Made by a program: the position numbers and the translations under genes. From positions 124,001 to 188,000 of the forward strand of contig NIVC01001091.1 of NCBI GenBank assembly GCA_002269645.1: a stretch of DNA of 64,000 bases, in the 5' to 3' direction. The notes beneath the pieces were generated by a model. The model saw only the letters and a list, made by a program, of their open reading frames with translations, was not told the DNA's origin and did not search any database. This DNA comes from Macrostomum lignano. Its lineage: Eukaryota. Shown here piece by piece: positions 1,750 to 63,877 of the stretch (position 1 is its first letter; every line of letters starts with the position of its first letter).

Positions 1750-3121
1750 AATAAAATATTGGCTCTCTATATTCTATATGTTAGGTACTTTTGGCTTTTG
1801 CAGATATTTGTTATTGTGCTATCCTAGTTTGACTTGGCAATAAAAAATTAATTCATGTTTTAACTATATGATTTAGACATAGAAACAAACATTTATAAAA
1901 ACCACAATGTGTTTTTTGCTTAAAATAAACTTTAACTTTAAAATTAATTTCAACTTTGAGAAATAAAGAAATTTAGTCAGAAAACAATGCAAAACATACT
2001 TGCTTAAGAAAGTGTATTTAGAAGCCATAATAATAAACTACATGCAAATAAAAGCAGGCAGTTTAAATAACTAGTTATTATAACAAAATTTAAGCTTTTC
2101 TGAATGAAATGTGGTTAAAAACATACTTTATCATGTCCTCAAAGTCAAAGATATGTCTTAAAATTATAAAGTTAAAATCTGAGGGCAGACATCTATAAGA
2201 TTGCTGGGTTACACAACTTTAAAGCACTTTAGACTCTTAGAGTTTGTTGTCGTATATTTTTCAAATCAGAGTGATACTTTTATTGTGTAAAAACTTCTAT
2301 GGTTTTATCTAAAGCATTATTTTAGTATTAATTACTGTCTACCTTAACATGGCTTAAGAAATTTTTACTTAAAAAAATTGTTAAACTTAATTTTCCCATC
2401 GTCCCTTTTTGTGGAAATGCCCACACTATATATAGACATAGTGCATGCTTTAAACCAAAATTCATAATACATAATCCTGACTGTAGCCCCTCAAAAAGTT
2501 CACAAATCTGATACATTTGCATTTATAAAAATGCTTTGAATACTCAATAATTTTTTTCACAATTATCCTGCTTTAAACTGTCTATATATGCAATAAATTA
2601 CATTAAAAGCACCCTCCTGTACAGATAAAAACCAAAATCTAAATTTACATAAGCACGTTAGATAAACAGCAGTAAATCCAATAAATAATTAACTCACGGT
2701 TTGCTGAAGGAGTATTTTCCAAAAAGTCGAAGGATTTTTCAGCAGACATTGTGTATTTATTATTTATTAGATACAAAGTATGGTTATAATAAAACGATGT
2801 GTTAGCTAGCAGCTACACACAGTTGTCCTGTCTTGCTTCTGTGAGTCCTGCACGTAAATATATAAATAAATGCAAACTCTTTGCAATAATGAGCACAAGC
2901 ATTATATTGAATAAGCTGTTTGATATAAAATACATATTATCTTTTTTGCCCCGTAAAGAGTAATTAGCTGTATTTGTTAAGTCTGGTCAAAAGATTTCAA
3001 CCAAGAAAAAAATGCCATGCAACTAAAAAAGAATACAACCTTCTTTGTTAAAAATATAAGATTGAACACCGTCACAGGACTTCGTTGTTTAACGTTATTG
3101 TTTCAAGGGGCCTTTTACTTA

Positions 3122-34765: not shown

Positions 34766-35758
34766 TGTCCCAAAAGTCGGTGCACTTTCTTCACAACAGC
34801 CTTTTCTGACCGATCAGAAATATTTATTTTGTAGCAGTTAACAAGAGAATTATCTGCCCGTTAAAATGACTTTCTATTTATTTCTGTATCTGCTGGCATT
34901 CTATAGATATGAGCAATTTTATGCCCCACCCCCTGTGCTACTTCTACAAATTGCCATAGACCAAAGCTTTGTACCTGATGCACGAAACAATGAAACATTC
35001 AACGAATCAATAAAACATCCGCAGCATGAAATCCGCAGTCCAAAGTTCACTGTTCCATACCGCACGATGACTGTGGAGTTGAAACTGTCAAAGATCTCGA
35101 CCCACTAATTACCGTGGCTCCGCACCTTCTGCACCATGACAATGCAAGTCCCCACACAGCCAAAAATACGGAGGAGACGAAGAGAAAGGCAAATTTTGAG
35201 CTGCTCTCACACCAATGCCTTCTCTCCGGATTTGTTGACAGCTGACTTTTCCATCTTTCCAAAGATAAAGAAGCTGCTGCATGGACGAATCTTTGCTTGT
35301 TGTGGGAGCCTAGGGAAGCATTGACTCGCCAAGTTCTCCTTCATGGTATGCCGCGCTCAGATATTGCTGATGCCCTTGACGACATGCACAGCTGATGGCA
35401 GAAGTGTGCAGCGCAGTGGTGACTATGTGGAGAAGCCTCAGGACAATTTTGATGATTAACTTTTGACTGTTCTTTCCTTAGCTTTCATGCTGCGGTTTGT
35501 TTTATTGATTCGTTGAATGTTTCGTTGTTTCGTGCATCAGGTACAAAGCTTTGGTCTATGGCAATTTGTAGAAGTAGCACAGGGGGTGGAGCATAAAATT
35601 TCTCATATCTATATAATGCCAGCAGATACAGAAATAAATAGAAAGTCATTTTAATGGGCAGATAATTCTCTTGTTAACTGATACAAAATAAATATTTCTG
35701 ATCGGTCAGAAAAGGCTGTTGTAAAGAAAGTGCACCGACTTTTGGGACACCCCTCGTA
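34766..35758 (+). mobile_element. Internally deleted mariner element with ~265-bp TIRs
   Basis: 34766-35033 is the reverse complement of ~35484-35749. The right end is GGGACACCCCTCG-TA; the left end lacks its outermost ~9 nt. The interior retains transposase remnants LHHDNASPHTA, SPDL..ADFSIFPKIKKLLHG and WQKC..SGDYVEK. Confidence 0.9.
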
Positions 35759-41102: not shown

Positions 41103-41657
41103 TCAGACCCCGGCCCCGGTCGGCTTCTTGTCTGTCGAAGCCTTGCGAGCGTCAGCAGACGACTTGCGATTGTCCACAGAGGACTTCCTGCTGGCCGGCT
41201 TCTCTGGCGGAATGATCAGCACGGGCCGGTGGGCGTGGTGCAGCACGTAGTCGGACACGCTGCCAAGGAATGTACGGCGCAGGGTGCCCATGCCGCGGTT
41301 GCCCATGATGATGATGCTGACGTTCTCCTCTTTGGCCACCTCGACAATTGACTGGCCGGGATTGTTGGTCACTCGTTCCACGAATTTGGTCTCGTTACTG
41401 ACGCCCAGCTGGCGGCAGCGCTCCCGCACCGCTTTGCCAATCTGGCTGCCGGCTTTCATTGCGTCCTTCATCATGTTGGCGTACACTTCGGAGTTGGCCA
41501 TCAGGCTGGCGCCGGTGCCCCGCGGCAGCGCCGGCGGCTCGATGGCGTACGTGAAGATGAGAACATCGGACGACTTGTTCATGTTGTCGGCGTAAAAGGC
41601 CACGGCCCGATGGCTGTGGTCGCTGCCGTCCACAGCGATAAGAATGCGCCGGGTCAT
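41103..41657 (-). CDS. Universal stress protein (UspA domain), single exon, 184 aa
   Basis: RRILIAVDGSDHS at the N-terminus and IIMGNRGMGTLRRTFLGSVSDYVLHHAHRPVLIIP with an intact G-2X-G-9X-GS ATP-binding motif. Strong GC3 codon bias. Confidence 0.95.
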   Translation of the reverse strand: MTRRILIAVDGSDHSHRAVAFYADNMNKSSDVLIFTYAIEPPALPRGTGASLMANSEVYANMMKDAMKAGSQIGKAVRERCRQLGVSNETKFVERVTNNPGQSIVEVAKEENVSIIIMGNRGMGTLRRTFLGSVSDYVLHHAHRPVLIIPPEKPASRKSSVDNRKSSADARKASTDKKPTGAGV

Positions 41658-44047: not shown

Positions 44048-46749
44048 GACCCCAGGGAAGTTGACAGGTGCGGTCCTAAATCATGTGCAAAGTATAATAA
44101 AAGTCACTTGTCTAGACATCCTGGCACCAAAAGTGACTGCAAAACGCCCATAAATCAAAAGAGAAGGTAACAGAGCGAGTGGGGAGAAAGCTGGAAAGAC
44201 CTCTTTGACCCAGACAGGCTGGAGCCAGAAGTGACAGCTAGACCGCCATGAGTCACTAAAAACAGTGAAAAAGTCACAAATTAGGGGGTCAGAATGAGGT
44301 TAAAAAAATTCCTCCCAGACTTAGTGTCGCTTGTCGATCTAGACTGTTAGAGGTCAATCCGTCTCAGACCCAGACAGCCTGACCTTCAAAGATGCGTAAA
44401 CAACCCAAAATTAAAATCCTAAGGGAAGTACATTGAGTTGAGTATATATCTAACTTAAATTAATAATAATGTCATAAATTAGTATAGTGCGGTTTGCGGT
44501 TTTAAGATTGAAAAAAGATGCGTCCTCATCAAATAGTATTGAGAACTACATGTAATACGACCACTTTTTGGATATTTTAGGTAATTATTATGTGTGAAAA
44601 AAGTTTATGTAATTTAGCTATTTAAATATGAAGTTTTTATTACATTTAATAAAAGGATTTCTTCATACAGTTTCATGCATTTTATATGGGCTTGTTTCAG
44701 GATTTACGTCGAAATACGATCAGCTTTTTATGTTATTTAAGAAAAGGATGCTGTGAAATAGAAAAAAATGGACTTGTTAAATAAGTGAATTTTTAAGTAA
44801 GTTAATATAGCTTTTTTATTATGACTATATGTATTTTGCTGCTAAACAAATGCAAAATTGTGTGACAGAAGCATTGTGTAGTAGTCTTCGTGAAAGTTTA
44901 ATAACTCAATTAAATTCAATAGCTGTTTGAGACGTTAGCTAGCTTTATTTTAATTATTTTGTTTAAACAAGTGCATCTAATGAAATCAACTTCAAATTCA
45001 AAATAGAGTTTAATTTGCAGGTTTTTTGTTTTTATAGTTTATTATGAGCCAGCTCCCTGGGCAAACACTTTAAAAACACCAAAGTAAAACTATTCACTAC
45101 GTAACGCGTATAATGTTGTTGATTTTCAGAATTCTGACGCAAAAAACGCAAATTATACTACTATCTGAAAATGAAGTAAGTAGTATACAAAAACGCTATC
45201 CTAAGCGTGATTCAATATGTAGTTGTAATAATCCATGTGCTCATATTAATTCCATGTACATTAATCCCTATCTATCTCAAATTGTACATTAATTCCATGT
45301 ACATTAATCCCTATCCCAAATTGTCTATCCCCAATTCTACATGTACACTCACATTAATCTACAGTGTCATCCCCGTAGTCATAATAATCCATGTGCTCAT
45401 ATTAATTCCATGTACATTAATCCCTATCTATCCCAAATTGGATATGTACATTAATTCCATGTACATTAATCCCTAACTCAAATGTCCATGTCTATCCCCA
45501 ATTCTATATGTATGCAGTATGTGCATTAATCTACAGTGTCATCCCCAGCGCGCGCGCGCACCAAAATTACAACTCGAAACCCTACTACATGTACAGTGTA
45601 CAATCTCATCTACTACTACCAAATGAGTCAACTAATTGTGTAGCCTACAACGTAAATGTATATTTCCAATGTACATTTCTCAGACATTTGAATAATACGG
45701 GTCGGAGTCTATATGTACATCGATAGCCTCTATACTCATATCCGCTACATACCCCAAAAATTAGGTATGTACATTTTCACCCTCGGAGAATGTAGGTTTG
45801 AATATGCTGATAATTTATTCGAAATCACTTATAAAATACACATACTTTCATATAGAGGCGGGCCTGTACAAACTCTCGCCAAGCGATGGGGTGGAGTTTG
45901 CGTCATCCAAGCCTCTCCCAAGTCTGCCCCCCAAATACAAGACTGTGTTGAAGCAGTGCTTTATATTTCTATTGACAGTGGGTATGATACAAGACGCTTC
46001 GTCGCGCTTTAATTACAGTAAACCATCCCCTCGAAGCTCCTATACTGAATGCTGAATCACCCTTTAACTCGGACCATAGTCAAATTCAACCCTGTTCGAA
46101 AACAGCCACCCCTCCGATGTTTACCAGACACAGCGCAGACCCCATAACAAATCGAGCTAAATTTTAACACTCGCCCCTGTTCTCTCTGTCCCCCCTTCTA
46201 AATGCCAAGGAATTTCGACCCTCTCTCCATTTTCAGTGTACAAACAGATCTTTCCACAGCACAGACCTATATTAAACTTCAAAACCCCTCTCTTCTCCGA
46301 TTACGTCATCCATGCCGCCCCAGATAGCAAGAAACCAACTTTTAATGCACACATCAACCCCGCGAATCTGAGCAAATCCGAGTCCGCCAACCTCTACCTA
46401 CATTGACAAACCCCAGCTGCATTTGTAAATGTACACAGCCTATGAATCAGTGTCTCCACCGCATGCAATTCTGATTTACTTGATTCTGAAATTTGTAAAA
46501 TGTATAAGTCACCCTTGCGTTTACTAGAAGTAGTGAAGTCCACAAATTTAAATACGTGAGGCTATTCAATTCTGCCTCTCCGCCTCCCCTACCTTCTCAC
46601 TTCAAGCTTTCAGACTTGGTCTTTGAGACGGTTTAATCTGTTAGAAGCAGGAATGAATCATGCACTGACCTCTCCATACAAAGTAATGTTGGAATTTCAA
46701 ACAAGAAATTTGGTTATTTTGAAAGCTAAATGACTAGAAATGCACATTT

Positions 46750-48900
46750 TTCATTAAAATGCAGCTTTTCACAGTTTTTATGCATTTTTACGTTAAAATG
46801 CAGACTTTGTTGATCAAAATCAGTAGTTTCATCACTAGAAACCATACTTTCAACAGCTAATTTGTCCAAATGTCGCTTTCAACTTGACCTTAGACAGCTT
46901 TTAAGCAGGAATGAACCCCACACAAACATCCACAAGCCAGCCCAAAATCAGCCAAAGACATGGCTATTGAAGCCTAAATTGCTAGAAATGAGCATTTTTT
47001 CATAAGAAAATACAATTTTTCACAGTTTTTATGCATTTTTACGTTAAAATGCAGACTTTGTTGATCAAAATCAGTAGTTTCATCACTAGAAACCATACTT
47101 TCAACAGCTAATTTGTCCAAATGTCGCTTTCAACTTGACCTTAGACAGCTTTTAAGCAGGAATGAACCCCACACAAACATCCACAAGCCAGCCCAAAATC
47201 AGCCAAAGACATGGCTATTGAAGCCTAAATTGCTAGAAATGAGCATTTTTTCATAAGAAAATACAATTTTTCACAGTTTTTATGCATTTTTACGTTAAAA
47301 TGCAGACTTTGTTGATCAAAATCAGTAGTTTCATCACTAGAAACCATACTTTCAACAGCTAATTTGTCCAAATGTCGCTTTCAACTTGACCTTAGACAGC
47401 TTTTAAGCAGGAATGAACCCCACACAAACATCCACAAGCCAGCCCAAAATCAGCCAAAGACATGGCTATTGAAGCCTAAATTGCTAGAAATGAGCATTTT
47501 TTCATAAGAAAATACAATTTTTCACAGTTTTTATGCATTTTTACGTTAAAATGCAGACTTTGTTGATCAAAATCAGTAGTTTCATCACTAGAAACCATAC
47601 TTTCAACAGCTAATTTGTCCAAATGTCGCTTTCAACTTGACCTTAGACAGCTTTTAAGCAGGAATGAACCCCACACAAACATCCACAAGCCAGCCCAAAA
47701 TCAGCCAAAGACATGGCTATTGAAGCCTAAATTGCTAGAAATGAGCATTTTTTCATAAGAAAATACAATTTTTCACAGTTTTTATGCATTTTTACGTTAA
47801 AATGCAGACTTTGTTGATCAAAATCAGTAGTTTCATCACTAGAAACCATACTTTCAACAGCTAATTTGTCCAAATGTCGCTTTCAACTTGACCTTAGACA
47901 GCTTTTAAGCAGGAATGAACCCCACACAAACATCCACAAGCCAGCCCAAAATCAGCCAAAGACATGGCTATTGAAGCCTAAATTGCTAGAAATGAGCATT
48001 TTTTCATAAGAAAATACAATTTTTCACAGTTTTTATGCATTTTTACGTTAAAATGCAGACTTTGTTGATCAAAATCAGTAGTTTCATCACTAGAAACCAT
48101 ACTTTCAACAGCTAATTTGTCCAAATGTCGCTTTCAACTTGACCTTAGACAGCTTTTAAGCAGGAATGAACCCCACACAAACATCCACAAGCCAGCCCAA
48201 AATCAGCCAAAGACATGGCTATTGAAGCCTAAATTGCTAGAAATGAGCATTTTTTCATAAGAAAATACAATTTTTCACAGTTTTTACGCATTTTTTACGT
48301 TAAAATGCAGACTTTGTTGATCAAAATCAGTAGTTTCATCACTAGAAACCATACTTTCAACAGCTAATTTGTCCAAATGTCGCTTTCAACTTGACCTTAG
48401 ACAGCTTTTAAGCAGGAATGAACCCCACACAAACATCCACAAGCCAGCCCAAAATCAGCCAAAGACATGGCTATTGAAGCCTAAATTGCTAGAAATGAGC
48501 ATTTTTTCATAAGAAAATACAATTTTTCACAGTTTTTATGCATTTTTACGTTAAAATGCAGACTTTGTTGATCAAAATCAGTAGTTTCATCACTAGAAAC
48601 CATACTTTCAACAGCTAATTTGTCCAAATGTCGCTTTCAACTTGACCTTAGACAGCTTTTAAGCAGGAATGAACCCCACACAAACATCCACAAGCCAGCC
48701 CAAAATCAGCCAAAGACATGGCTATTGAAGCCTAAATTGCTAGAAATGAGCATTTTTTCATAAGAAAATACAATTTTTCACAGTTTTTACGCATTTTTTA
48801 CGTTAAAATGCAGACTTTATTGATCAAAATCAGTAGGTTTCATCACTAAAAACCACAATTTTAACACAAAATTATCACAAATGCTACTTCTGGAACTCTG
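46750..48900. repeat. 251-bp tandem satellite, 8 full units, in the left arm
   Basis: CAGACTTT anchors at 46801, 47052, 47303, 47554, 47805, 48056, 48308, 48559 and 48811. Degenerate units continue to ~49400. Confidence 0.96.
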
Positions 48901-49911
48901 AGACAGCTTTGAGCAGGAATTATAATCGCACACGGATTACCCGAGCCAGTCCAATTTCCACTAAAACCATGATTTTTTTAAAGCTAATTCTTAGAATTTC
49001 TCATTCTTTCGTTTAATAAAGGCCAATTTTCACAGTTTTATTATTTTCTAACGTTAAAATGCTAAATGCGAATTGATCAAACTTAGTAGTTTCATCCCAA
49101 AAACCATAATTTCAACCGCTAATTTGTCCAAATGCTGATTTCAAAGTTGGCAAGAGACAGCTTTCGAGCAGGAATGAGTCACACACTGATCTCCATATGC
49201 ACACCCCGCCCCAAGTTGGAATTCCACCCAAGGCATTTTCATTGAAAGCTAAATTACTAGAAATTGCACATTTTCGTTTTAAAAAGGTCAATTTTTACAG
49301 TTTTAACTCTTTTTAACGTTAAAATGCTGACTTTATTGAACAAAATGAATCACTTCATTCAGTAGAAACCATAATTTTTACAACTTAAAAATGCTGTTTC
49401 ATCATCAAATGTGTGTATTTGGTACGTGTAATACCCCTCAAGAAGTCAGGGAAGGGATTATTCTTGAATATTGGGTTAAAACGTACAGTTTGCTATAAAC
49501 CTAGCTTATAAAGCCGAGGGATGTTCCATAAGTACTTATACTTTTGCATGCTGCTCAGGAACTACGCAACCAATCATTGTAAGTTTTATGTCGCTGGAAA
49601 GCGGCTTTACTCATCTTTAATCTGTCGCCAAAATCATTTCGTTCTGTCAACTATGTCAAAAGTTACAACAAAAAACGTAGTCAAAGGTCACCCATAGACT
49701 TACAAGAAATTTTCAAAATCAAAACTTCAAAGTTCAGCACGCAGAGTTATTTTGGATTCTACATAATGCATTCTTTTTTGCTTCATAAGCGAATGCCACA
49801 CCCTTTTCGTCTATGGAAAATACTGGCCTAAGCTTTCACAGCATCTTAATCTTAAGATCACAGCATCTTAATCTTGTAAAGTTTCACCACCTTGGCTGCT
49901 GCTGCATCACC

Positions 49912-50997
49912 ATGGATGTGAACTCAAGGGAAGGACAGCGCGCTGCAATTTTTACCCTCTGGAAACTCGGAAAAAAGCGATCAGAGATTTATGCGGATTT
50001 ATGCAACATTCATGGAGCTAATGCGGTGAGCAGGATGACCGTCTACAACTGGGTTGAGCAGTTCGAAGCAGGAAGGACCAATGTTGCTGATTTGCCGAGG
50101 TCGGGCCGCCCCTGCACATCAGGCTCTGATGCTCTCACCGATCGAATTCTTGATCTGCTGGACGAAGATTGTCGGCTAACGATTCGACAGATTGCAGATA
50201 GACTGGACACGCCGAGCACAACTGTGCATCGCTGCTTGTCGCGCATGGACTTTGTCAAGCTGACTGCTCGTTGGGTGCCACGCCTACTCACCTCGGACTT
50301 GAGACTGCAGAGGCAGCAGATTTGTCAGGCCAATATTCGGATGATGGAAGAATACGGTGGTTGGGATCTCTTCCATCGAATGATAGTCACTGGAGATGAA
50401 ACCTGGATTCCCCATTTTGATCCACCAACGAAACGTGATTCCCAGGTCTGGATGCTGAAGGGCTCTGATCCTCCGGTAAAAGCTCAAAGGGACGCACATG
50501 GAAAGAAGATCATGCTGTCTCTGTTTTTCGACTGCAATGGTCCTCTAACTGTCGAGTTTTTGGAGCCAAACACTACAATAAACTCTGAGCGCTACGTTGA
50601 AACGCTAACAAAGCTGCATCATGACATCCAGAACAAGCGTCGTGAAAATCCCAGACCTTTCATTCTTCATCATGACAATGCAAGGCCTCATACAGCACAA
50701 AAGACAGTCGAGGCAATCAGCAAGCTGAAGCTCCATCTTCTACCTCACCCTCCTTACTCTCCAGACCTGGCACCAGCAGACTTTGCTTTATTTCCAGAGT
50801 TGAAGCGCCATCTGAAAGGACGCGTGTACGAGACCAGGAACCAGATCGAGGAGGAAGTCCGCAGAATTCTGCTGTATGTCATCCCCCGACAGCTGTACGC
50901 AGAAGCCATCAAAAGCATGTTTAACAGGTGGACCAAGTGCATCAACTCCGGTGGAAACTACGTTGAGAAGGTGTCGGTACCGACTGAGGATGAGTGA
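49912..50997 (+). CDS. Mariner (Tc1/mariner, DD34D) transposase, intact, 361 aa from ATG 49912 (upstream in-frame ATG at 49813)
   Basis: N-terminal HTH (VSRMTVYNWVEQF...RSGRP), WVPRLL, catalytic TGDETW, HHDNARPH and YSPDLAPADF with 34 residues between D2 and D3. No stops or frameshifts. Confidence 0.96.
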   Translation: MDVNSREGQRAAIFTLWKLGKKRSEIYADLCNIHGANAVSRMTVYNWVEQFEAGRTNVADLPRSGRPCTSGSDALTDRILDLLDEDCRLTIRQIADRLDTPSTTVHRCLSRMDFVKLTARWVPRLLTSDLRLQRQQICQANIRMMEEYGGWDLFHRMIVTGDETWIPHFDPPTKRDSQVWMLKGSDPPVKAQRDAHGKKIMLSLFFDCNGPLTVEFLEPNTTINSERYVETLTKLHHDIQNKRRENPRPFILHHDNARPHTAQKTVEAISKLKLHLLPHPPYSPDLAPADFALFPELKRHLKGRVYETRNQIEEEVRRILLYVIPRQLYAEAIKSMFNRWTKCINSGGNYVEKVSVPTEDE

Positions 50998-51879
50998 CAA
51001 AGAAGTCAAACTTTCTGTCATCAACAACGCGCCTCTGTTTTCATGCTTGCCATTGTAGTTGTTGCTCTTTAAATTTCTTGTAAGTCTATGGGTGACCTTT
51101 GACTACGTTTTTTGTTGTAACTTTTGACATAGTTGACAGAACGAAATGATTTTGGCGACAGATTAAAGATGAGTAAAGCCGCTTTCCAGCGACATAAAAC
51201 TTACAATGATTGGTTGCGTAGTTCCTGAGCAGCATGCAAAAGTATAAGTACTTATGGAACATCCCTCGGCTTTATAAGCTAGGTTTATAGCAAACTGTAC
51301 GTTTTAACCCAATATTCAAGAATAATCCCTTCCCTGACTTCTTGAGGGGTATTACACGTACCAAATACACACATTTGATGATGAAACAGCATTTTTAAGT
51401 TGTAAAAATTATGGTTTCTACTGAATGAAGTGATTCATTTTGTTCAATAAAGTCAGCATTTTAACGTTAAAAAGAGTTAAAACTGTAAAAATTGACCTTT
51501 TTAAAACGAAAATGTGCAATTTCTAGTAATTTAGCTTTCAATGAAAATGCCTTGGGTGGAATTCCAACTTGGGGCGGGGTGTGCATATGGAGATCAGTGT
51601 GTGACTCATTCCTGCTCGAAAGCTGTCTCTTGCCAACTTTGAAATCAGCATTTGGACAAATTAGCGGTTGAAATTATGGTTTTTGGGATGAAACTACTAA
51701 GTTTGATCAATTCGCATTTAGCATTTTAACGTTAGAAAATAATAAAACTGTGAAAATTGGCCTTTATTAAACGAAAGAATGAGAAATTCTAAGAATTAGC
51801 TTTAAAAAAAATCATGGTTTTAGTGGAAATTGGACTGGCTCGGGTAATCCGTGTGCGATTATAATTCCTGCTCAAAGCT

Positions 51880-53025
51880 GTCTCAGAGTTCCAGAAGTAG
51901 CATTTGTGATAATTTTGTGTTAAAATTGTGGTTTTTAGTGATGAAACCTACTGATTTTGATCAATAAAGTCTGCATTTTAACGTAAAAAATGCGTAAAAA
52001 CTGTGAAAAATTGTATTTTCTTATGAAAAAATGCTCATTTCTAGCAATTTAGGCTTCAATAGCCATGTCTTTGGCTGATTTTGGGCTGGCTTGTGGATGT
52101 TTGTGTGGGGTTCATTCCTGCTTAAAAGCTGTCTAAGGTCAAGTTGAAAGCGACATTTGGACAAATTAGCTGTTGAAAGTATGGTTTCTAGTGATGAAAC
52201 TACTGATTTTGATCAACAAAGTCTGCATTTTAACGTAAAAATGCATAAAAACTGTGAAAAATTGTATTTTCTTATGAAAAAATGCTCATTTCTAGCAATT
52301 TAGGCTTCAATAGCCATGTCTTTGGCTGATTTTGGGCTGGCTTGTGGATGTTTGTGTGGGGTTCATTCCTGCTTAAAAGCTGTCTAAGGTCAAGTTGAAA
52401 GCGACATTTGGACAAATTAGCTGTTGAAAGTATGGTTTCTAGTGATGAAACTACTGATTTTGATCAACAAAGTCTGCATTTTAACGTAAAAATGCATAAA
52501 AACTGTGAAAAATTGTATTTTCTTATGAAAAAATGCTCATTTCTAGCAATTTAGGCTTCAATAGCCATGTCTTTGGCTGATTTTGGGCTGGCTTGTGGAT
52601 GTTTGTGTGGGGTTCATTCCTGCTTAAAAGCTGTCTAAGGTCAAGTTGAAAGCGACATTTGGACAAATTAGCTGTTGAAAGTATGGTTTCTAGTGATGAA
52701 ACTACTGATTTTGATCAACAAAGTCTGCATTTTAACGTAAAAATGCATAAAAACTGTGAAAAATTGTATTTTCTTATGAAAAAATGCTCATTTCTAGCAA
52801 TTTAGGCTTCAATAGCCATGTCTTTGGCTGATTTTGGGCTGGCTTGTGGATGTTTGTGTGGGGTTCATTCCTGCTTAAAAGCTGTCTAAGGTCAAGTTGA
52901 AAGCGACATTTGGACAAATTAGCTGTTGAAAGTATGGTTTCTAGTGATGAAACTACTGATTTTGATCAACAAAGTCTGCATTTTAACGTAAAAATGCATA
53001 AAAACTGTGAAAAGCTGCATTTTAA
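51880..53025. repeat. 251-bp tandem satellite, 4 full units, inverted, in the right arm
   Basis: AAGTCTG anchors end at 51973, 52225, 52476, 52727 and 52978. Confidence 0.96.
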
Positions 53026-55283
53026 TGAAAAATGTGCATTTCTAGTCATTTAGCTTTCAAAATAACCAAATTTCTTGTTTGAAATTCCAACATTACTTTG
53101 TATGGAGAGGTCAGTGCATGATTCATTCCTGCTTCTAACAGATTAAACCGTCTCAAAGACCAAGTCTGAAAGCTTGAAGTGAGAAGGTAGGGGAGGCGGA
53201 GAGGCAGAATTGAATAGCCTCACGTATTTAAATTTGTGGACTTCACTACTTCTAGTAAACGCAAGGGTGACTTATACATTTTACAAATTTCAGAATCAAG
53301 TAAATCAGAATTGCATGCGGTGGAGACACTGATTCATAGGCTGTGTACATTTACAAATGCAGCTGGGGTTTGTCAATGTAGGTAGAGGTTGGCGGACTCG
53401 GATTTGCTCAGATTCGCGGGGTTGATGTGTGCATTAAAAGTTGGTTTCTTGCTATCTGGGGCGGCATGGATGACGTAATCGGAGAAGAGAGGGGTTTTGA
53501 AGTTTAATATAGGTCTGTGCTGTGGAAAGATCTGTTTGTACACTGAAAATGGAGAGAGGGTCGAAATTCCTTGGCATTTAGAAGGGGGGACAGAGAGAAC
53601 AGGGGCGAGTGTTAAAATTTAGCTCGATTTGTTATGGGGTCTGCGCTGTGTCTGGTAAACATCGGAGGGGTGGCTGTTTTCGAACAGGGTTGAATTTGAC
53701 TATGGTCCGAGTTAAAGGGTGATTCAGCATTCAGTATAGGAGCTTCGAGGGGATGGTTTACTGTAATTAAAGCGCGACGAAGCGTCTTGTATCATACCCA
53801 CTGTCAATAGAAATATAAAGCACTGCTTCAACACAGTCTTGTATTTGGGGGGCAGACTTGGGAGAGGCTTGGATGACGCAAACTCCACCCCATCGCTTGG
53901 CGAGAGTTTGTACAGGCCCGCCTCTATATGAAAGTATGTGTATTTTATAAGTGATTTCGAATAAATTATCAGCATATTCAAACCTACATTCTCCGAGGGT
54001 GAAAATGTACATACCTAATTTTTGGGGTATGTAGCGGATATGAGTATAGAGGCTATCGATGTACATATAGACTCCGACCCGTATTATTCAAATGTCTGAG
54101 AAATGTACATTGGAAATATACATTTACGTTGTAGGCTACACAATTAGTTGACTCATTTGGTAGTAGTAGATGAGATTGTACACTGTACATGTAGTAGGGT
54201 TTCGAGTTGTAATTTTGGTGCGCGCGCGCGCTGGGGATGACACTGTAGATTAATGCACATACTGCATACATATAGAATTGGGGATAGACATGGACATTTG
54301 AGTTAGGGATTAATGTACATGGAATTAATGTACATATCCAATTTGGGATAGATAGGGATTAATGTACATGGAATTAATATGAGCACATGGATTATTATGA
54401 CTACGGGGATGACACTGTAGATTAATGTGAGTGTACATGTAGAATTGGGGATAGACAATTTGGGATAGGGATTAATGTACATGGAATTAATGTACAATTT
54501 GAGATAGATAGGGATTAATGTACATGGAATTAATATGAGCACATGGATTATTACAACTACATATTGAATCACGCTTAGGATAGCGTTTTTGTATACTACT
54601 TACTTCATTTTCAGATAGTAGTATAATTTGCGTTTTTTGCGTCAGAATTCTGAAAATCAACAACATTATACGCGTTACGTAGTCTATTCATAGCTGAAAA
54701 ATAACTTGTAATGAAAAGGAGTCTGTACTAATGATATCGACATAATAAGAGATGGTCTCATGGCATGTTTAGGTTGAATTTCTAATAGAATTTGCATCGA
54801 CTAAACGCAGTCTTGTTAGCTCAAAAAGAAAGTAAAAATAAAAGAAGACAGTTTTTTAGTACTGAAGGTACGGTTAAAAATATTTGCTTGGATTTGGTCA
54901 TTGAGACAATGTTTTATTTAAATTATTTTATGTCGGAATAATTTTAGGAATATTGAATATATGTAGGCTTTAACGTACATGTAAATTGCAAAGCAAAATA
55001 TAGCATAATCTTTTAGTCACACTAATCATGAATGACGAAATTTTTGTTTTTAAATATGGTATTTAATTTATAATTCAGATTCAATATGCTTTTAAAAGTG
55101 TTTCTTCCTAAGGCCTGCATTTTCCTAGATTTTACTACATTGTCCTCAGTCGATGTTGCTACTTAGACTAGAAATTCCATTTTGGACATGGGTTCGCCTT
55201 AATTTCTTATCGTGGACTTTGTATATGTCAATTGCTAGAGTTGCTCCAAAAACTTCAGAGCTTAACGCGGGCGAACAAGTTCA

Positions 55284-58200
55284 ATGAAATCCTCAGATGA
55301 TGCCGACAGCTCAGCAGTCACCTCAAAAAACCACCAGACGGCTCAGCCATCGCAGACAGTCGCCAGAAATCCACTGCTTCACCGGCACTCGTCAAAGATC
55401 CTCAAACTAGCAGGCGATGGAGACTTACCTGGCACGCGCCTGGCCGCCAGTCCGAGCTACCAAGGCGTTATGCTCGGCGACTTGGCCAACGTGCCACCTG
55501 AGAATAGCCGCGTCGTACGCATCTTTCTATCGTCGACCTTCTCCGACATGTCGGCGGAGCGCAACTACCTCATGCAGCGCGTCAATCCCCGGCTGAAAAG
55601 GTTCTGTAGAGACACCTACGGACTGGAATTTCACACCATCGACATGCGCTGGGGCGTAGGCGACGATGTTCAACTAGATCATCGGGGTCCGGAAATCTGC
55701 TACCAGGAGATCCAGAATGCCCTGCTGACGTCAGCCGGCCCCTATTTTATTTGCCTGCTCGGTCAACGGTATGGCAATCAGCCGCCAGCTGCAACAGTGG
55801 AGACTGACACCTTTGAAAAGATTATTTCGGCTCTTACAGCCGATGGCCAGGACGTGTCCTGTCTGCGGGACTGGTACGCCATTGACGTCAACAGTCAGCC
55901 GCCGGTTTGCGTGCTGAAGCCCATTGCGACACCGGCTGAGGCGGTGAGCTGTGGATACTTTATAGTACCTGTAAAAATTAACACGAATTATTGTGGAAAA
56001 ATTGGATAAGTAGTACGAACTTCGGTCACAAATTTATAGGTAAATAAGCTATTCCAAGGAAACGGTACTGGCCAACACGAATTTTATACCAAAAATTATG
56101 AGATGTGACCTTACAGAAATCAACTCCACCTTCCAGGGAAATGAGACACCCCTGCTTGAGTCTCAGTGCCGAGTTCGCGATCTATTTCGCTCATTTCTGC
56201 ATTAAGCAGCATATACATATTCAATATTAGTGGTGTTGTTTAGCATTTTAGTAGAATTAAGTGATTTTTCTTCATGGTTCTTGATCAAATGAGCAAACGA
56301 AGTGTGTTTTGCTTGTTGCTATAATCGTTTAAATACGAGCGTGATCTCTACCGAAACTTTTTAGACCGATAAGGAGTTTCTTAGAAAGGCTCATCAGAGC
56401 TGGGCAGCTGTGAGCGATCGCCTAATTGACTTGATGCGGAGAGGCGCCGAGCTCTGCTTCCAATGCGGCCAAATTTCGCAGATGCAAATGAAGAAACTCA
56501 CCGCTTCGGTCACGGAGACGGAGATTCTAAATGGAATTTTGTCAATGCCCGAGAAGAGGCTGGCGCAGGCGCTGGCATTTGTCAGGGAGTACTCCAATCT
56601 GGAGACGCAGCGCGATCTGTCCCGCGGCAAGCTGTTTAAGTTTATCGACCTAATGGATTCTGTCGACGAAGCTGGCAAACCAGTGAAGGTTATTAACCCC
56701 ACTGTGAACCAGATGGTAAAGCAACTCAATGAAAGTGTTCTAACTAGTTTGCCCAGCTCAAATGCATTTAAATACTCGCTCGAATGGACCGACGATCACG
56801 ATGGCGCAAGTTTGGACTCGAAAGAAAACTATCTAGAGCGCTTCGGTAATGACTATTGCTGTGAAGTTCAGCGACTTGTGGCCGAATCCGTGCGGGAGAG
56901 CATGCGACTTCGATCCGACGATCTCTATTCAGAGGTGCTGCAGCACTCGACTGCGTGCGTCAACTACGTGAAGAAGTTCCAGGGTCGGCAAGAGATCATC
57001 GACAAGGTGAAGGCTTATGTGCAAGCGAGCAACACAACGGAGCCTCTGGTGGTGTACGGCGACTCGGGCAGCGGCAAGACCTCTCTACTTGGCAAGGCCG
57101 CCAGTCTGGTGCGAAGCTGGTTGCCAGAGTCCGATTCCAAAGATGCCATCGTGCTGCTGCGATTCCTCGGTACCAGTCCCGGTACGTCGAGCATTCGACA
57201 GACACTCAAGTACCTGTGCCGTCAGCTCGCTGTGTTCGGCAACGAGGACGACCAGGAAAAGTGCCAGTTGCTCGACGACTTCAAGGAGATCTTGAACACC
57301 TTCTACTCCATGCTCGAACGCATGGGCCAGTTCAGGAGAATCTTGGTGTTCCTTGACAGTGTTGATCAGCTGGACAGCTCTGACGGTGCCTACCATCTGA
57401 CGTGGGTGCGGACGCCATTGCCTGCCAACGTGAAGATGGTTGTGTCCACGCTGCCCAACATGTTCGACTTGCTGAAGACATTCAAAGGGAAACTGCCGAA
57501 CCCAGACTTCTACGTAGAGGTGACGCCACTGGAGACCAGTCTGTGCACCAGCATTTTGTCGGCGCTGCTCAGCGAACAAGGTCGCACTCTGAACGAGCAG
57601 CAATGGGCTCTGGTCGAGCAGGCATTCTCCAAGTGCTCACTGCCAATCTATGTTCACCTGCTGTACCACGAGGTTCTGAGATGGCGCTCTTACCAACAGG
57701 TAGATGAGTCGTCTCTGCGCTACACCGTTCGTCAGGCAATATTTCAGCTGTTCGAGAAACTCGAGTTGAAGCACGGCAGGCTGTTTGTAAGTACTTCATG
57801 TTAGTTACAGTAGCCCAGGCTAGTGAGAATAACCCACTACTATCCACTTATCTACAGTGATTGGATTTGATTTTCCAGACATCTCACGCCCTGGCATTCA
57901 TCACTGCATCGAGAAACGGACTGTCAGAGTCGGAGCTGGAGGATCTGCTCAGTCTGGATGACGCCGTCCTCATTGACGTGTTTCAGCATCACCTGCCGCC
58001 CTTCATCCGCATCCCGCCGATCTGCTGGGCTCGACTTCGTCACGACATTGGCTCTTACCTGGTCGAGAGAGAGGCGGACAACATCCGGGTAGAGTTCTGG
58101 TACCACCGACAGTTCATCGAGGTGGCTCAGGAGTACTTCTTGTCGGACGAAAAGACCAGACGGGACATTCACTCCATCATGGCAGACTACTTCTTGGGTC

Positions 58201-61200
58201 TGTGGAGCGGCAGGAGAAAGAAGTTCGTGTACCCAGCCTATCTGCGCAAGAAGCTCGTAAGTGATGACCGCTGCAGTTGATCTGCTCTCTGAAACGCCTT
58301 CAATGCGTTCTCACTGCTCCCCTCCAGAACCTGCCCGAGTTCTCAATGGAGGATCGAGCCGTTCCCGAGCAGCCATTCGTGCTCCGCAAAGATGAGGACG
58401 GCACTGCTCAGTACAACCTGCGAAAGCTGAACGAGCTGCCGTGGCACCTCATCAAGTCCGGTCGAGTGAACGAGTTCTACGACTACATTGTGTTTGACTA
58501 CGACTTCATGTTCAACAAGCTGAAGGGCACGTCTCGGTACCTGCTGCTGAGAGACCTCGACCTCCCGCAGAAGCTCGGAGTCGAGTACACCAAAGAGGCC
58601 GAGCTCGTGTACAATGCAATCCGACTCTCCGCTCAGAGTCTCGTGTACGACCCTGTCAATCTGAGCGTTGATCTCATCGGTCGGCTCATCATGTACGAGA
58701 AGGACTGTCCTCGAGTGAAGCTGCTGCTCAACCAGTGTCGCCAGTCGAAACAGGCTCTCAGCAACTGCTGCCTCATCCCGAAAGTGCAGTGCTTCGACTC
58801 CGGGTCTGGAGTTCTCTACTCCAGTTTCGATCTGGGTCTTGGACTAGGCATCATGCTTCCGAATGGTCAGGTGGCGGCCTTCTCGCTCATTAATAACGAC
58901 ATCACGTTTTACGATATCGAGGGAAATGAGATTAAGCGTTTTCCAAGCAACTACAACTTTGCAGTTAGTTTAAAGTACCTCGCAGAGGGCAACGTGCCCG
59001 TGTCAGAGGACTGCGTGGCAACTGTGATTGCTTTGCGGGATAAAAACATGCCGGTAGATGAGGAGGAAGTAGAATCTGCCCAGGGCTCTGGTTCAGATTC
59101 AGAACAGTACGATGTTGTTCGCCTAGACTTTATTAATGGAAAAGCTACCAAGTTGATGTCTCTGGCTCGACCACACAAACTAAGCATTCAAGATATTCAT
59201 ATAGTCACGGAGAACTACATCCTCCTTGGGAAAAGCCAATCAGATACTAGCATCGACGTGAGTTTATTGTCAATAAAAGACAATATTCTAGTTCCCCTTT
59301 TGGATGATCAGGTTTTAGTGCCCTCATCTTTCGGACGGCAATACCTGGACCCAGAGCAAGACCGTATCTGCGTTGGAATTTCCACCAAAAAGTCGAAATC
59401 CACCTTTTTACTGTTCAAAAACTTGAAGACTGGGGCAGTTTTGAACGGAGACTTGCTCGATATATTCCGATCTGTAGACAAGTCGAATCTCGAGGCTATT
59501 TGTTCGCCATCCGACATCAGTCAACGGCCACGAAATCCAGGACTAATCGATCTGCTGCACCAGGCGACTCACATAGCATTGGGCTGTTGCTGTTTAGCCC
59601 CAGACGGCAGCGTCGTAGCACTACTGTCGGTGCACAGTGCCGAGCTGACCGAGTGCACTATACTAGTGACATTCTGCACATGTGCTGAGGCTCTGCGGCC
59701 GACCTATATTGTAGACACCGGCTCGAGATTTCTTTCGAAATCGACGCAATGCATTCGCAGCGCCTCTATGAATCGAATCGCATTTTTTATTGAGATGTCA
59801 ACAAATAAAACTGAAAGTTCCAGTCAAACGCCCTCCATGCGCAGAGGCTACATCTACGAATGTCACTCAAAGCGAGCGGTTGAGCTCCGCATTGATGACA
59901 ATCTGAGCAGATTCTCAAAGTCGCTCAAAAAGTTCGGCAAATCGATGCGTGCATGCTTCACAGAGAATGAAAAACTGCTGGTGACCAACGAATTCCAAAC
60001 TTTACTGTTAGTTTGGTCAGTGCAAACTGGCCAGCTGTTGCACGGAATCAAGGATGGCGCAGCTGAGGGAATTCTGTGCGGTCAACCCAAGGGCACTGAG
60101 TTCATGACTATCTGCTACTTTCCCAACTTTCCTGACAGCATGAACATCTCATTGAAGGTCTACAATCTGGGAGTCTTTAATCAGGAAAATCAGCCAGTTG
60201 AGCAGGGTGGCATGACCCTGCCATTGTTCACCCACCGGTTCGCCTGGTCCTGCTGTGCCAAAGTTGCCGGAGAGCCTCGCAAGATAGAAGTCCTCGGCGA
60301 GGAACCAAAAGATACGCTGCTGTTGGACTCCGAGTCTCTGGAAGTCAGTCGTGTCGGTGCCGCAGGCCAGGCAGACTTTGTGCGAGTTCTTATTGATGAG
60401 CCGCGAGTTGAGCTGGTCAGAAAATCGTCCAATCAAGGCAAAGTGATTCTGGTCCTGCCCAACTGCCAGCTTGAGAACGTGCTTTCTGTTTCACAGCAGA
60501 TTCAGGAACCAGATGTGAAGCCAGAACCCTGCGCCATTGAGGAGCCCAAGAAGTTTTTAGAAGACCTAGAATTCACCGTGCTAGTCACCAAGGCTTCGGA
60601 TGGGACTGAGAATCGTCACGTGACATCAGCGCCGTTGCGCGAGTACAGCAGTTTGATATTTACGTCGACACCAATTTCGCAATTCTATTCCGATTCGCCT
60701 CTAATTTTTGTTGACGAATCGAGAAAACTATTGATGTCAATGACTTTCAATAAAAGCTTTCTATCATATGATGTTGCTGTTTCGACTATTAATCTAGAAA
60801 CGTTTTCCGGAGAGCAAAGCAAAATTAACTTGGAAAACCTTGAAGCGGAGCATCCATTTTCCGATCAATTTCTAAGCGTGTTTAATTACGTAATTGCCAA
60901 CGAGCTCAGGCCTGCCGCTAGAAACCGAGCTCAAACAGCGGATGAAAGTAACAAGGAACTGAGCCTTTACAATCTGACTACTGGGGAAAGGCAGTCGAAA
61001 ATCAATAAGTTCTTTCAGTACTACCTGCGCAACAGAACTAGCTGCATCGAAATCCAGTTCGTTGCAGAGCAACGGATTTTGAACCTGGCGATCTCGCAAA
61101 AGGAACAGGCTGCCAAGCTGATTCGCACCGGAGTTGGCGTGCCGTCCATATGGCTTGGCTTTGTCATCCGATTGGAGTATGGCGAAACGTCAATACCGCA

Positions 61201-63877
61201 GTCGAGCTTGTGTCAGCGCAACAGTAAATACTTCGATATGGGGCCTTCAGTTGCATTTCTGAGCGACAACCAGCACCTGGTGAACTACAAGCTGCAGATT
61301 GTGGACTACATGGCAGGAGACGTGATTCGCTGTATCCGGCCGGATGAGGAGCTGCACTTTCTGCAGCTGAAGGTTAGAAGTCTTAAAAATTTAAAGCATT
61401 CCTTTCGTAACTTCTACTACGAGCAATAGGTTTGTTTACACAATTTCCCTCACGAAAAATTACAGGTCACTCGCGACGAAAGTCTTCTTGTTGGCCAGCT
61501 GTTCTTTCCATCGTACGAGGTCAACGTTGCCGCGTTTGCAAAAATTAGTGCCAACGAAAAAGAAGAGGGCACATTCGCTATTTTGCCACCGCGTTGTGTT
61601 CAGGTGAATGATCTGCATAACATTGCTGAAATATTTCTGAGAATAATCAGTACTCGACCGTAGCTCAGGACAGGGGGGTCTTTCTCGAAAATTGCGTAAT
61701 TTCTATGGTAAGTTCGATCTTAAGTTAGAACTTTACGCTCTCCGAAAGATCAATACTAAGCCAGTTTCTCGAAACTCGCTTAGACTTTGCGTGACTTACG
61801 CGATTCGTAAGTCTAGTTAAGTCGATAAAATGTTGTCTATGGAAGAGAAGACAAAAAATCAAATCTAAAAAGCTAATTTTAATAATATGGATTTCTTGCT
61901 TTATTTTTTACTAACAGTAATAGGAATTGGGCACCAGTTTTATTTTATTTTATTTTATTTTATTTTATTTTATTTTAGGAAAGTACCCAAAGAAATACAT
62001 GCATGTACAAGCAAAAGATTATAATGTTTTAGAACGCGAGCAGTTGTTAACCAGTTTTTTTGGCTTGACAGCTAAAAGTCGTAACAGATCAACTCAATTA
62101 AAGTAGACAATCAACCCGCACAACTCCACATTGACCCCCTAAATCACAGAACTCACCAGTTGTCGTGGACATCACTACCAATCACACCCTCAGACCAGAG
62201 TTTCTCTTCAGACGTCGGCTCTCATTGAATTCCCCGTCCTTCCAGAGGCTCCATGGCTTTCCGCATAGGTTGAACAAGTAGTATCTATTGCAGCATGCTG
62301 AAAATAATTCTTCAACGTAAAAGCGCCATAGCAATCACCACATTGATTTCGGATCTCTAAGACAAAACACTTAAGAACGTAGTTGAGATCGCGCTTGCTC
62401 AAACTCGGATGCTGGTGCCAATGGCAAGTCACTTTAGACAGCTTCGATTTCAGCAACACTACAAAGTGATTCAATGCAAATAACTCGAAAATGTCACAGA
62501 AAAGGTTTAGTAGAGATAAAGACAACTACTCACTACTCTTAAATATAGGATTCAATACTTGGTCACGAGTGCGCGAAGCAACACGATTTGCCTTTGCCTC
62601 GGCCAAAAAAAGCACACATGTTCTTTGTATCTAAGGACCAACTTCTTTTGCGATTAATTCGAAGTTTTCCCGAAGTGAAGCTCTCAGTGCACGATTGAGC
62701 ACTACTCAACCTGCTTTTTAAAACAGGTGTACCGCATCAGCGATGGCTCACGACTAGCCAACTATCTGTTCGAGACCAGCCCTCTTGGCTTCTGTATCTT
62801 CGGACAGCCTGACCGAGACCTATTGGGGTTGTTTCAAAACAAGCCCCTACAACTGTTCTGTCTGGTTGAACCACCCGAAGACGCTGAGGCGACAGCAACA
62901 GTGCATTCAGTGCAGCGCACGGAAGCGGCCGAAAGTCTGGCTTCTTTGTCGCACAATGAAATGGATTACGAAAATCAACTGGACAGTCTACGTGAGCTTC
63001 TTGGTTATTTGTAATATTTGTAATTGGATTTCTTGAAGTTTTACTGGGATTATATAGTGTCCGAGCTCCGTCCCCGCTTCCTGTCCCAGAACGAGTCCTT
63101 TGGGCCTCCTGTCCCAGAACGAGTCCTTTGGGTCCCCTGTCCCAGCACAAGTCCTTTGGGTCTCCTGTACCAGCACGAGTCCTTTGGGTCTCCTGTACCA
63201 GCACGAGTCCTTTGGGTCTCCTGTCCCAGCACGAGTCCTTTGGGTCTCCTGTCCCAGCACGAGTCCTTTGGGTCTCCTGTCCCAGCACGAGTCCTTTAGG
63301 CCTCCTGTCCCAGCACGAGTCCTTTGGGTCCCCTGTACCAGCACGAGTCCTTTGGGCCTCCTGTCCCAGCACGAGTCCTTTGGGTCCCCTGTCCCTGCAC
63401 GAGTCCTTTGGGTCTCCTGTCCCAGCACGAGTCCTTTGGTTCTCCTGTCCCAGCATGAGTCCTTTGGGTCCCCTGTCCCAGCACGAGTCCTTTGGGTCCC
63501 CTGTCCCAGCACGAGTCCTTTGGTTCTCCTGTCCCAGCACGAGTCCTTTGGTTCTCCTGTCCCAGCACGAGTCCTTTGGGTCCCCTGTCCCAGCACGAGT
63601 CCTTTGGTTCTCCTGTCCCAGCACGAGTCCTTTGGGTCCCCTGTCCCAGCACCAGTCTTCAGGCGTCTCCAGTCCCACAGTGTCCAATCAGTTTAACAGT
63701 TTCAGTTTAACATTCCACTCAATTCAATGGATGGCAGGTGTAGCCCTGGGCCAGGCCATGCTCGAACTGGCCGTCGCTCGCCCTTCGGACCCCGTCGCAT
63801 TTCTTGCCAACGCTCTGCTACGATTGAGGCCTTCCTGCGTTGGAGACCCTCAGGTTTCCACCGAGAAGCGAGCTTAA
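55284..63877 (+). CDS. NWD1/NWD2-like STAND NTPase (DUF4062 + NACHT + divergent beta-propeller region + C-terminal Dpy-30-like motif), ~2015 aa; exons 55284-55943, 56365-57786, 57879-58256, 58328-61372, 61466-61603, 62727-62991, 63738-63877
   Basis: [17 protein letters not shown]...IDMRWGV (DUF4062), Walker A GDSGSGKT, Walker [24 protein letters not shown] and [13 protein letters not shown] are NWD-type motifs. All junctions are GT-AG with compatible phases (0,0,0,0,0,1). AATAAA lies immediately after the stop. Confidence 0.85.
63075..63655. repeat. 28-bp minisatellite (TTTGGGTCTCCTGTCCCAGCACGAGTCC) filling the last intron of the NACHT gene
   Basis: 28-nt period (63181 vs 63209); it explains the repetitive track ORFs at 62737-63877. 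Confidence 0.96.

Follow-up and report, generated by a model that had tools for sequence, protein, structure and literature searches.

Polintons, or Mavericks (alpha-type adintoviruses), are described as single units of 13–25 kb that encode a protein-primed polymerase (pPolB) and an integrase, are bounded by terminal inverted repeats (TIRs) and generate target-site duplications (TSDs) of 5–8 bp (PMC10748475, PMC4028283, PMC3014272). Their biology involves a panhandle and protein-primed copying (PMC4046053), their end motifs mostly read AGT or AG, with one AC type in one fish Maverick (PMC8097293), and integrated Polinton-like viruses without an integrase are known (PMC11296320). Here we analyzed a window of 64,000 nt from Macrostomum lignano contig NIVC01001091.1 (C1091; other contigs are likewise given C-numbers, and coordinates are positions in this window), which contains a 9,588-bp palindromic element. 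We are fairly confident that this palindrome, which is non-coding, is an offshoot of a two-segment Polinton-related family, likely a fold-back of the polymerase-distal end of segment A, and likely inserted by the integrase of segment B. The family takes three forms: A, the pPolB segment; B, the integrase/capsid segment; and C, the non-coding fold-backs, to which the window element belongs.

The family resembles Polintons, as these sources describe them, in its 6-bp TSD, TIRs, pPolB (PF03175), rve integrase and double jelly-roll (DJR) capsid (PMC8097293, PMC8502044, PMC4028283, PMC10748475), and the gene order of segment B follows the vertebrate module. The ACT of the window element is not itself among the end motifs listed in section 7 of PMC8097293. 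Unlike the Polintons of these accounts, the family carries pPolB and integrase on separate elements of ~9.5 kb and ~10 kb with shared ends, and the window copy encodes neither protein and is a palindrome.

Bidnaviruses are single-stranded DNA viruses with parvovirus-type capsids and no integrase. They share with the present family a related class of pPolB and two segments with matching termini (PMC8502044); here, in contrast, the capsid is a DJR protein and both segments integrate. Snap-back defective genomes have examples among DNA viruses. Such genomes are like the window element in being non-coding, self-complementary and helper-dependent, and in carrying one end twice (PMC6140465). The palindromes described here differ in that they are chromosomally fixed with TSDs and form a family with a common hairpin centre. 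The fold-back transposons FB of Drosophila and Galileo, which have P-type or MULE-type transposases and 7–11-bp TSDs, also possess very long TIRs, internal tandem repeats and a variable centre, but the window element has Polinton-family ends. Neither a segmented Polinton nor a palindromic Polinton derivative was found in the literature searched; Repbase and Dfam, which lay outside this search, may already list such families. In one preprint (bioRxiv 10.64898/2026.10.13.758929), neither 'segment' nor 'bipartite' occurs.

Results

The element spans positions 45096–54683, starts with ACTACGTA and finishes with TACGTAGT, giving the termini ACT...AGT. Global alignment of its arms yielded 0 mismatches over 3,612 aligned bases, with one 1-bp indel and one gap of 1,005 bp, which corresponds to four 251-bp units. 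A previous sequence-only reading had described near-perfect reverse-complement arms of several kilobases around a 1.36-kb loop, and this architecture is borne out. The extents of the arms, however, need correction: as first delimited, they ran from 45096 to 49712 (4,617 bp) and from 51071 to 54683 (3,613 bp) around a 1,358-bp loop, but the innermost 198 bp of each are the TIRs of a mariner transposon. The arms of the host element are therefore 4,419 and 3,415 bp long, and surround a mariner of 1,754 bp. The outer arms (45096–46718, forward strand; 53061–54683, reverse strand, terminating in TACGTAGT) are non-coding and identical. The 251-bp array of the left arm (46719–49385, forward) consists of one unit at 95%, seven units at 99–100% (46967–48724) and three degenerate units, and that of the right arm (51398–53060, reverse) of three degenerate units, three at 100% (52060–52812) and one at 95%.

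The sequence CTATTC directly flanks the element on both sides (45090–45095 and 54684–54689). The right flank is present three times in the assembly, in the window, on C2241 and on C1110, and C1110 represents the empty site in another haplotype, where the left and right flanks join across a single CTATTC. The empty site that the sequence-only reading had suggested looking for thus exists, and it confirms CTATTC as the TSD. The repeat is not a chance match, since its probability at a single junction, calculated from the flank composition, is about 5e-4, 39 of the 43 paired copies of the family show such a repeat, and C1110 retains the empty site. The left junction was covered by short-read contigs in all four runs, with 29–30 letters on the short side against a bar of 31 letters. 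The mirror-image structure and its insertion with a 6-bp TSD are real.

A tight end pattern retrieved 112 ends, of which 100 were listed, compared with 0 for the control. The pattern required TTTTCAGA and therefore missed the segment-B ends, which continue TTTTGGAGG. All 43 paired copies have ACTAC(G/A)TA at their ends. Their 6-bp duplications (39/43) reduce to 35 of 37 distinct sites when each site is counted once; three of these 35 sit in simple repeats, where a duplication says little. The duplicated words vary from site to site. The tabulation of ends and TSDs proposed earlier thus gave a consistent 6-bp TSD. By content, the paired copies comprise 13 pPolB elements, three elements in which the pPolB end is folded back or nearly so, 23 window-like non-coding fold-backs and four other derivatives.

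The terminal 31 nt occur in 57 distinct versions, made of a few interchangeable blocks common to A, B and the fold-backs, and the sequence just inside them is far more constant. Within most copies the first 31 nt are the same at both ends, though they vary between copies. The window version (45096–45126, forward) matches one segment-B end at 29 of 31 positions and the ends of full Polintons at 8–10 of 31; it is likely the recognition end for the integrase and the terminal protein. A mini copy of only 247 bp (L170, C1368) has both ends and a 6-bp TSD, and the cis requirement for insertion may accordingly be short. Some ACTAC ends stand alone, their interiors diverged and their partner absent from the surrounding 10–20 kb (L175, L176, L179, L185, L191, L193, L194, L198 and L201); orphan, HTH and DnaJ open reading frames (ORFs) lie near such ends and may or may not belong to them. 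Among other superfamilies considered, IS3EU/GingerRoot elements produce 6-bp TSDs with TA..TA ends (PMC10045372); the duplication fits, but the window ends are ACT..AGT, and this assignment was rejected.

Segment A consists of ~9.5-kb pieces that carry pPolB (PF03175) and no integrase or capsid. Nine copies without large insertions measure 9,486–10,827 bp, some copies additionally contain PC4 and dUTPase, and homologues of the family pPolB were found across animals. Over 2.2 kb, the arm of the window element is about 90% identical to the polymerase-distal end of the pPolB copy on C2286. The 251-bp unit belongs to this same end region of the parent element and has been amplified. The array is therefore not a satellite carried as cargo, as had been supposed, but an amplified part of the parent's own end.

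Whole palindromes of 9.2–9.9 kb are present on C1299 (two contigs), C301, C2205, C1526 and C657. Their arms have 4.4–4.8 kb of paired bases and they share one GC-rich hairpin centre with a loop of 48–79 nt. Within a copy, the arms are 99.6–100% alike in 15 of 16 copies (0–5 differences per 1.4 kb) and 98.4% alike in the remaining one, while identity between copies is 87.8–98.4%, with a median of 93.75 (120 pairs). Many copies have internal deletions. A search of the window element for an encoded pPolB or integrase found no match. It has two features of Polintons, the 6-bp TSD and TIRs with a conserved end motif, and is a non-autonomous derivative, which works like the end pair of a non-autonomous Polinton and not like an autonomous member. 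The 2006 Polinton paper reportedly names non-autonomous Polintons.

Several further arrangements of segment A were seen. At L107 (1260–5325, reverse), pPolB is spread over four successive frames, all of which are conserved in the sister family described below; two of the three gaps between them are AT-rich, and these gaps are likely introns, which would be unusual for Polintons. Fold-backs of the opposite, pPolB end (L042, L086) and of a dUTPase-bearing end variant (L164) also exist, and one pPolB segment (L033) is nested inside a window-type fold-back (L084/L085, C1485). A flip/flop of the hairpin centre was considered and discarded: both orientations occur, but in a palindrome the orientation depends on the strand read.

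Segment B was reached via the capsid of a sister-family element on C4, and five of its loci were examined. The ACTACGTA ends of all five conform to the family pattern for 31 nt, beyond which they diverge, whereas none of three full Polintons conforms. Four of the five loci are 9,792–10,174 bp long and have perfect 6-bp TSDs, and the fifth is a fold-back of 14,363 bp with a 5/6 duplication. In addition to the end that matches the window at 29 of 31 positions, another is identical to a segment-A end, and the C1313 end differs by only 2 bases from another segment-A end. The segment-B fold-back on C1313 (L228/L229) has 3,660-bp arms and a doubled capsid gene.

All five loci contain integrase, minor-capsid-like, capsid and ATPase-like frames, some of them split or shortened. 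The gene order of segment B is integrase, minor-capsid-like, small ORF, major capsid and protease-like. The rve domain scored above the Pfam cut-off in four of them. A model of the capsid (pLDDT 87, from a 16-row alignment) matches the major capsid protein of PBCV-1 with E 9e-17, identifying a DJR fold, and the P-loop ORF has weak AAA matches and is 30–42% identical to full-Polinton ATPases. The protease-like ORF, a putative counterpart of the adenovirus-type protease of Polintons, is so labelled from its place in the gene order and a motif.

The two segments have complementary contents. No pPolB of either type was found in the five B loci (0/5), and none of the 102 A or fold-back loci matched segment-B proteins (0/102), so that no locus in these two sets combines pPolB and integrase in one 13–25-kb element as Polintons do. 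Among 31 further end loci, none has an integrase or capsid of its own; the matches in L190, L192 and L201 sit in neighbouring elements. Genome searches with Pfam profiles recovered full Polinton families only, and not segment B, with PF21738 (capsid), nothing with PF04665, and mostly long, retrotransposon-sized frames with PF00665, the latter two results being uninformative. As a whole, the family thus encodes pPolB on A, and an rve integrase and a DJR major capsid protein on B. The sequence-only reading had set Polintons aside; this exclusion no longer holds, given that same-ended copies carry pPolB, others carry the integrase and capsid, and a start with 5'-AC has been described in Mavericks.

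The genome also houses full Polintons, of at least three families, that combine pPolB, integrase and capsid and have AGTAG ends. One type, that of C67 (L124/L125, L133), has a D5-type primase-helicase, a PLA2-like/integrase ORF, an Eco47II-like nuclease and a terminal hairpin of ~100 nt; its ACTACGTAACC motif proved internal. A sister family with ACTACTAAGG ends repeats the A/B pairing: it includes ~9-kb pPolB elements (L128/L129, L126/L127, L219) and, on C4 (378061–392019; L207:102–L208:7019), an element bounded by sister ends and a 6-bp TSD, in which ORFs resembling integrase, capsid and ATPase were found and no pPolB match. All four sister-family elements examined have 6-bp TSDs. The C4 element further has an ORF with a Fic domain and harbours a THAP transposon nested within it. 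Sister pPolB elements are neighbours of full Polintons or are embedded in them (C1412, C211), and one B segment has a sister-type end 0.8 kb away (L227:8483).

The centre of the window element is occupied by the mariner (49515–51268, forward), with TIRs at 49515–49712 and 51071–51268. Its transposase (49912–50997, forward; 361 aa from the likely start, with the frame open from 49813) has the D-(34)-D spacing and the WVPRLL and YSPDL motifs, and matches Pfam Transposase_1. Many near-identical transposase copies occur in the genome and together delimit the 1,754-bp element with its 198-bp TIRs. Of the 16 best copies, eight have TA at both ends, five have at least one end not matched by the end motif used, and three (the window copy, its allele and that on C2366) have a non-TA flank on one or both sides. 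The inner 1,754 bp hence combine a DD34D transposase, TIRs and TA duplication. Compared with other DD34D mariners, it agrees in the catalytic spacing, the two motifs and TA targets, but TIRs of 198 bp are long for a mariner, and both TA flanks are gone here.

The insertion point can be read from mariner-free relatives. The family arm continues at 49386–49506 up to the TA at which the mariner inserted, and family arms without mariner read CCTAGC-TA-TAATAATTTT, an empty TA. Where the left TA copy is expected, both alleles (window and C2241) have the same 8-nt filler (49507–49514), suggestive of imprecise repair. To the right of the mariner, the C2241 allele retains the TA and the family centre, whereas the window has a mirror copy of the filler and the left inner arm (51269–51397, reverse). 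Transposase matches among 58 family loci are confined to the window and its C2241 allele. The mariner is thus an ordinary, independent, TA-inserting element and an unrelated later passenger, whose TA was lost through a later change in this copy only. The transposase had been proposed to be cargo, correctly so, as the same mariner stands alone at unrelated TA-flanked sites. The apparent paradox of a mariner with a 6-bp TSD vanishes, because the mariner is independent and found in only this family insertion.

Almost certainly, the mariner landed in one arm after the palindrome had inserted. Repair at its right end then probably copied the left arm over the old centre. Alternatively, the mirror copy on the right side of the mariner (from 51269 to roughly 52800) would be an assembly effect, and the true allele would keep the TA and the family centre as C2241 does. 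This alternative, which concerns that one part only and leaves the element itself real, gains from the absence of any mismatch between the arms, from the presence of the unmirrored state on C2241, and from a short-read contig test that did not resolve the right mariner junction. We nevertheless consider it rather unlikely: the same mariner has mirrored, TA-less flanks of ~190 bp at another locus on two contigs (C2366 and C592), and C2241 has two deletions of its own, so that the alleles differ anyway. In the copy-over reading, the centre of the window copy was lost, the mariner and extra repeat units came in, and the copy is once more 9,588 bp long, which may be chance. The flanks at C2366 and C592 (L057:934–1125 and 2858–3049; L051) also raise the possibility that this mariner family may generate inverted duplications of its flanks.

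The element lies between a universal stress protein gene (41103–41657, reverse) and a DUF4062/NACHT gene (55284–61429, forward), 600 bp ahead of the first ORF of the latter. Elsewhere in the window (34766–35749), a 267-bp inverted repeat pair with 96.6% identity, about 450 bp apart, represents a small TIR element.

Discussion

The palindromes are likely to have arisen by a template switch. pPolB would start copying at the ends, and a template switch would fold one end back, giving a molecule with two copies of that end. The founding fold-back would have been a palindrome of ~9.5 kb whose two ends were functional and whose centre was a GC-rich hairpin; its spread would have given rise to the family of palindromes. 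The segment-A pPolB would, with somewhat better than even probability, copy this gene-less palindrome in trans from its protein-primed ends, in the manner of a defective-interfering genome. A template switch followed by end-primed copying fits because the ends are identical within a copy and variable between copies. Insertion with a 6-bp stagger would very likely be the work of the segment-B rve integrase, and the 6-bp duplication would be explained by it. The earlier proposal that an enzyme with a 6-bp TSD moved these ends in trans is accordingly supported as the most likely one. Packaging in the segment-B capsid, to which we give less than even odds, is suggested by size only: nine of 21 non-coding copies are 9.0–9.9 kb long.

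Several observations weigh against this reading. The remaining 12 of these 21 copies are shorter, so that the clustering of lengths is partial; the tally left out four longer copies carrying insertions (C600, C126, C1485 outer and C2455). Similarity to the parent is patchy or absent in the hairpin centre and in the inner 1.6 kb of the arms, and assembly polishing could inflate the identity of the arms within a copy. At 31 nt the shared end is short, it is also variable, and the C1313 end matches the window end at 18 of 31 positions, no better than a sister-family end. The five B loci examined come from a group of about 30 at 87–88% capsid identity, and neither Pfam nor PDB gave a match for their protease-like ORF. 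Full-length Polintons, which have integrases of their own and 6-bp TSDs, are abundant (117 scored matches) and could be the helper. Four of the 43 paired copies lack a TSD. TSD-less copies are found on C1580 and C1190 (L167, L168) and on C485 and C583 (L152–L156); at one of the two sites the flanks mirror each other, and the other has two different ends, likely rearranged after insertion.

In another possible scheme, the segment-B integrase would excise the palindromes and re-insert them, as happens with ordinary non-autonomous fold-back transposons, without any polymerase step, and chromosomal gene conversion would keep their arms alike. Extrachromosomal copies were not shown, and the internal deletions in many copies are typical of non-autonomous transposons. 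However, the coexistence of 57 terminal forms with matching ends in most copies fits a replication step in which one end serves as the template for the other, and efficient excision is not a known property of retrovirus-type integrases (PMC2836005). We therefore regard this route as unlikely.

A less probable variant keeps the same origin but takes the integrase from the full-length Polintons, with segment B as just another defective derivative. The three or more full families with pPolB, integrase and capsid, and the 6-bp TSD of the full Polinton on C211, would accommodate it. It appears improbable, given that their AGTAG ends agree so little with the window end, that their pPolB is not matched by the family pPolB at E 1e-4, that their integrases are only 28–32% identical to that of segment B, and that the same pairing recurs in the sister family, with ends particular to that family.

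The remaining alternatives have next to no probability. The sequence-only reading had also allowed for a mariner with altered, 6-bp targeting that mobilizes the entire 9.6-kb unit; the window copy does have an open, centrally placed transposase frame, but the mariner's own copies are TA-flanked (those of the best 16 lacking TA at both ends mostly have damaged or mirrored ends), it is absent from other family insertions, an empty TA is visible in mariner-free arms, and the duplications at the ends of the whole unit, being 6-bp and non-TA, led us to reject it as a Tc1/mariner element. Chapaev/CMC elements have CAC...GTG ends and 4-bp TSDs, and the left junction can be read as TATT-CACTA, with a mutated last base, as the sequence-only reading had noted as a second alternative, but that C is part of the duplicated hexamer, A, G or T precedes ACT in other copies, which have 6-bp repeats, and the empty site holds one CTATTC.

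Our findings add a segment B with the ends of the family, an empty site and the history of a mariner passenger, and they assign the giant palindromes to this family. They name a likely source of enzymes for giant palindromes that otherwise resemble orphan fold-back transposons and, together with the sister family, bring the split Polinton pairs of this genome to two. Preserved in the copies are steps that theory foresees on the way to multipartite viruses, namely complementing halves and non-coding cheats, and a laboratory animal offers full, empty and rearranged alleles. Perfect palindromes of several kilobases at dozens of places are also relevant to genome stability and assembly quality. 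Finally, the family may, although we hold this only tentatively, be a working two-segment integrating double-stranded DNA virus with gene-less, capsid-sized snap-back genomes that it copies, packages and integrates. If so, these would be heritable defective-interfering genomes, which have so far been seen only as 'giant fold-back transposons'.

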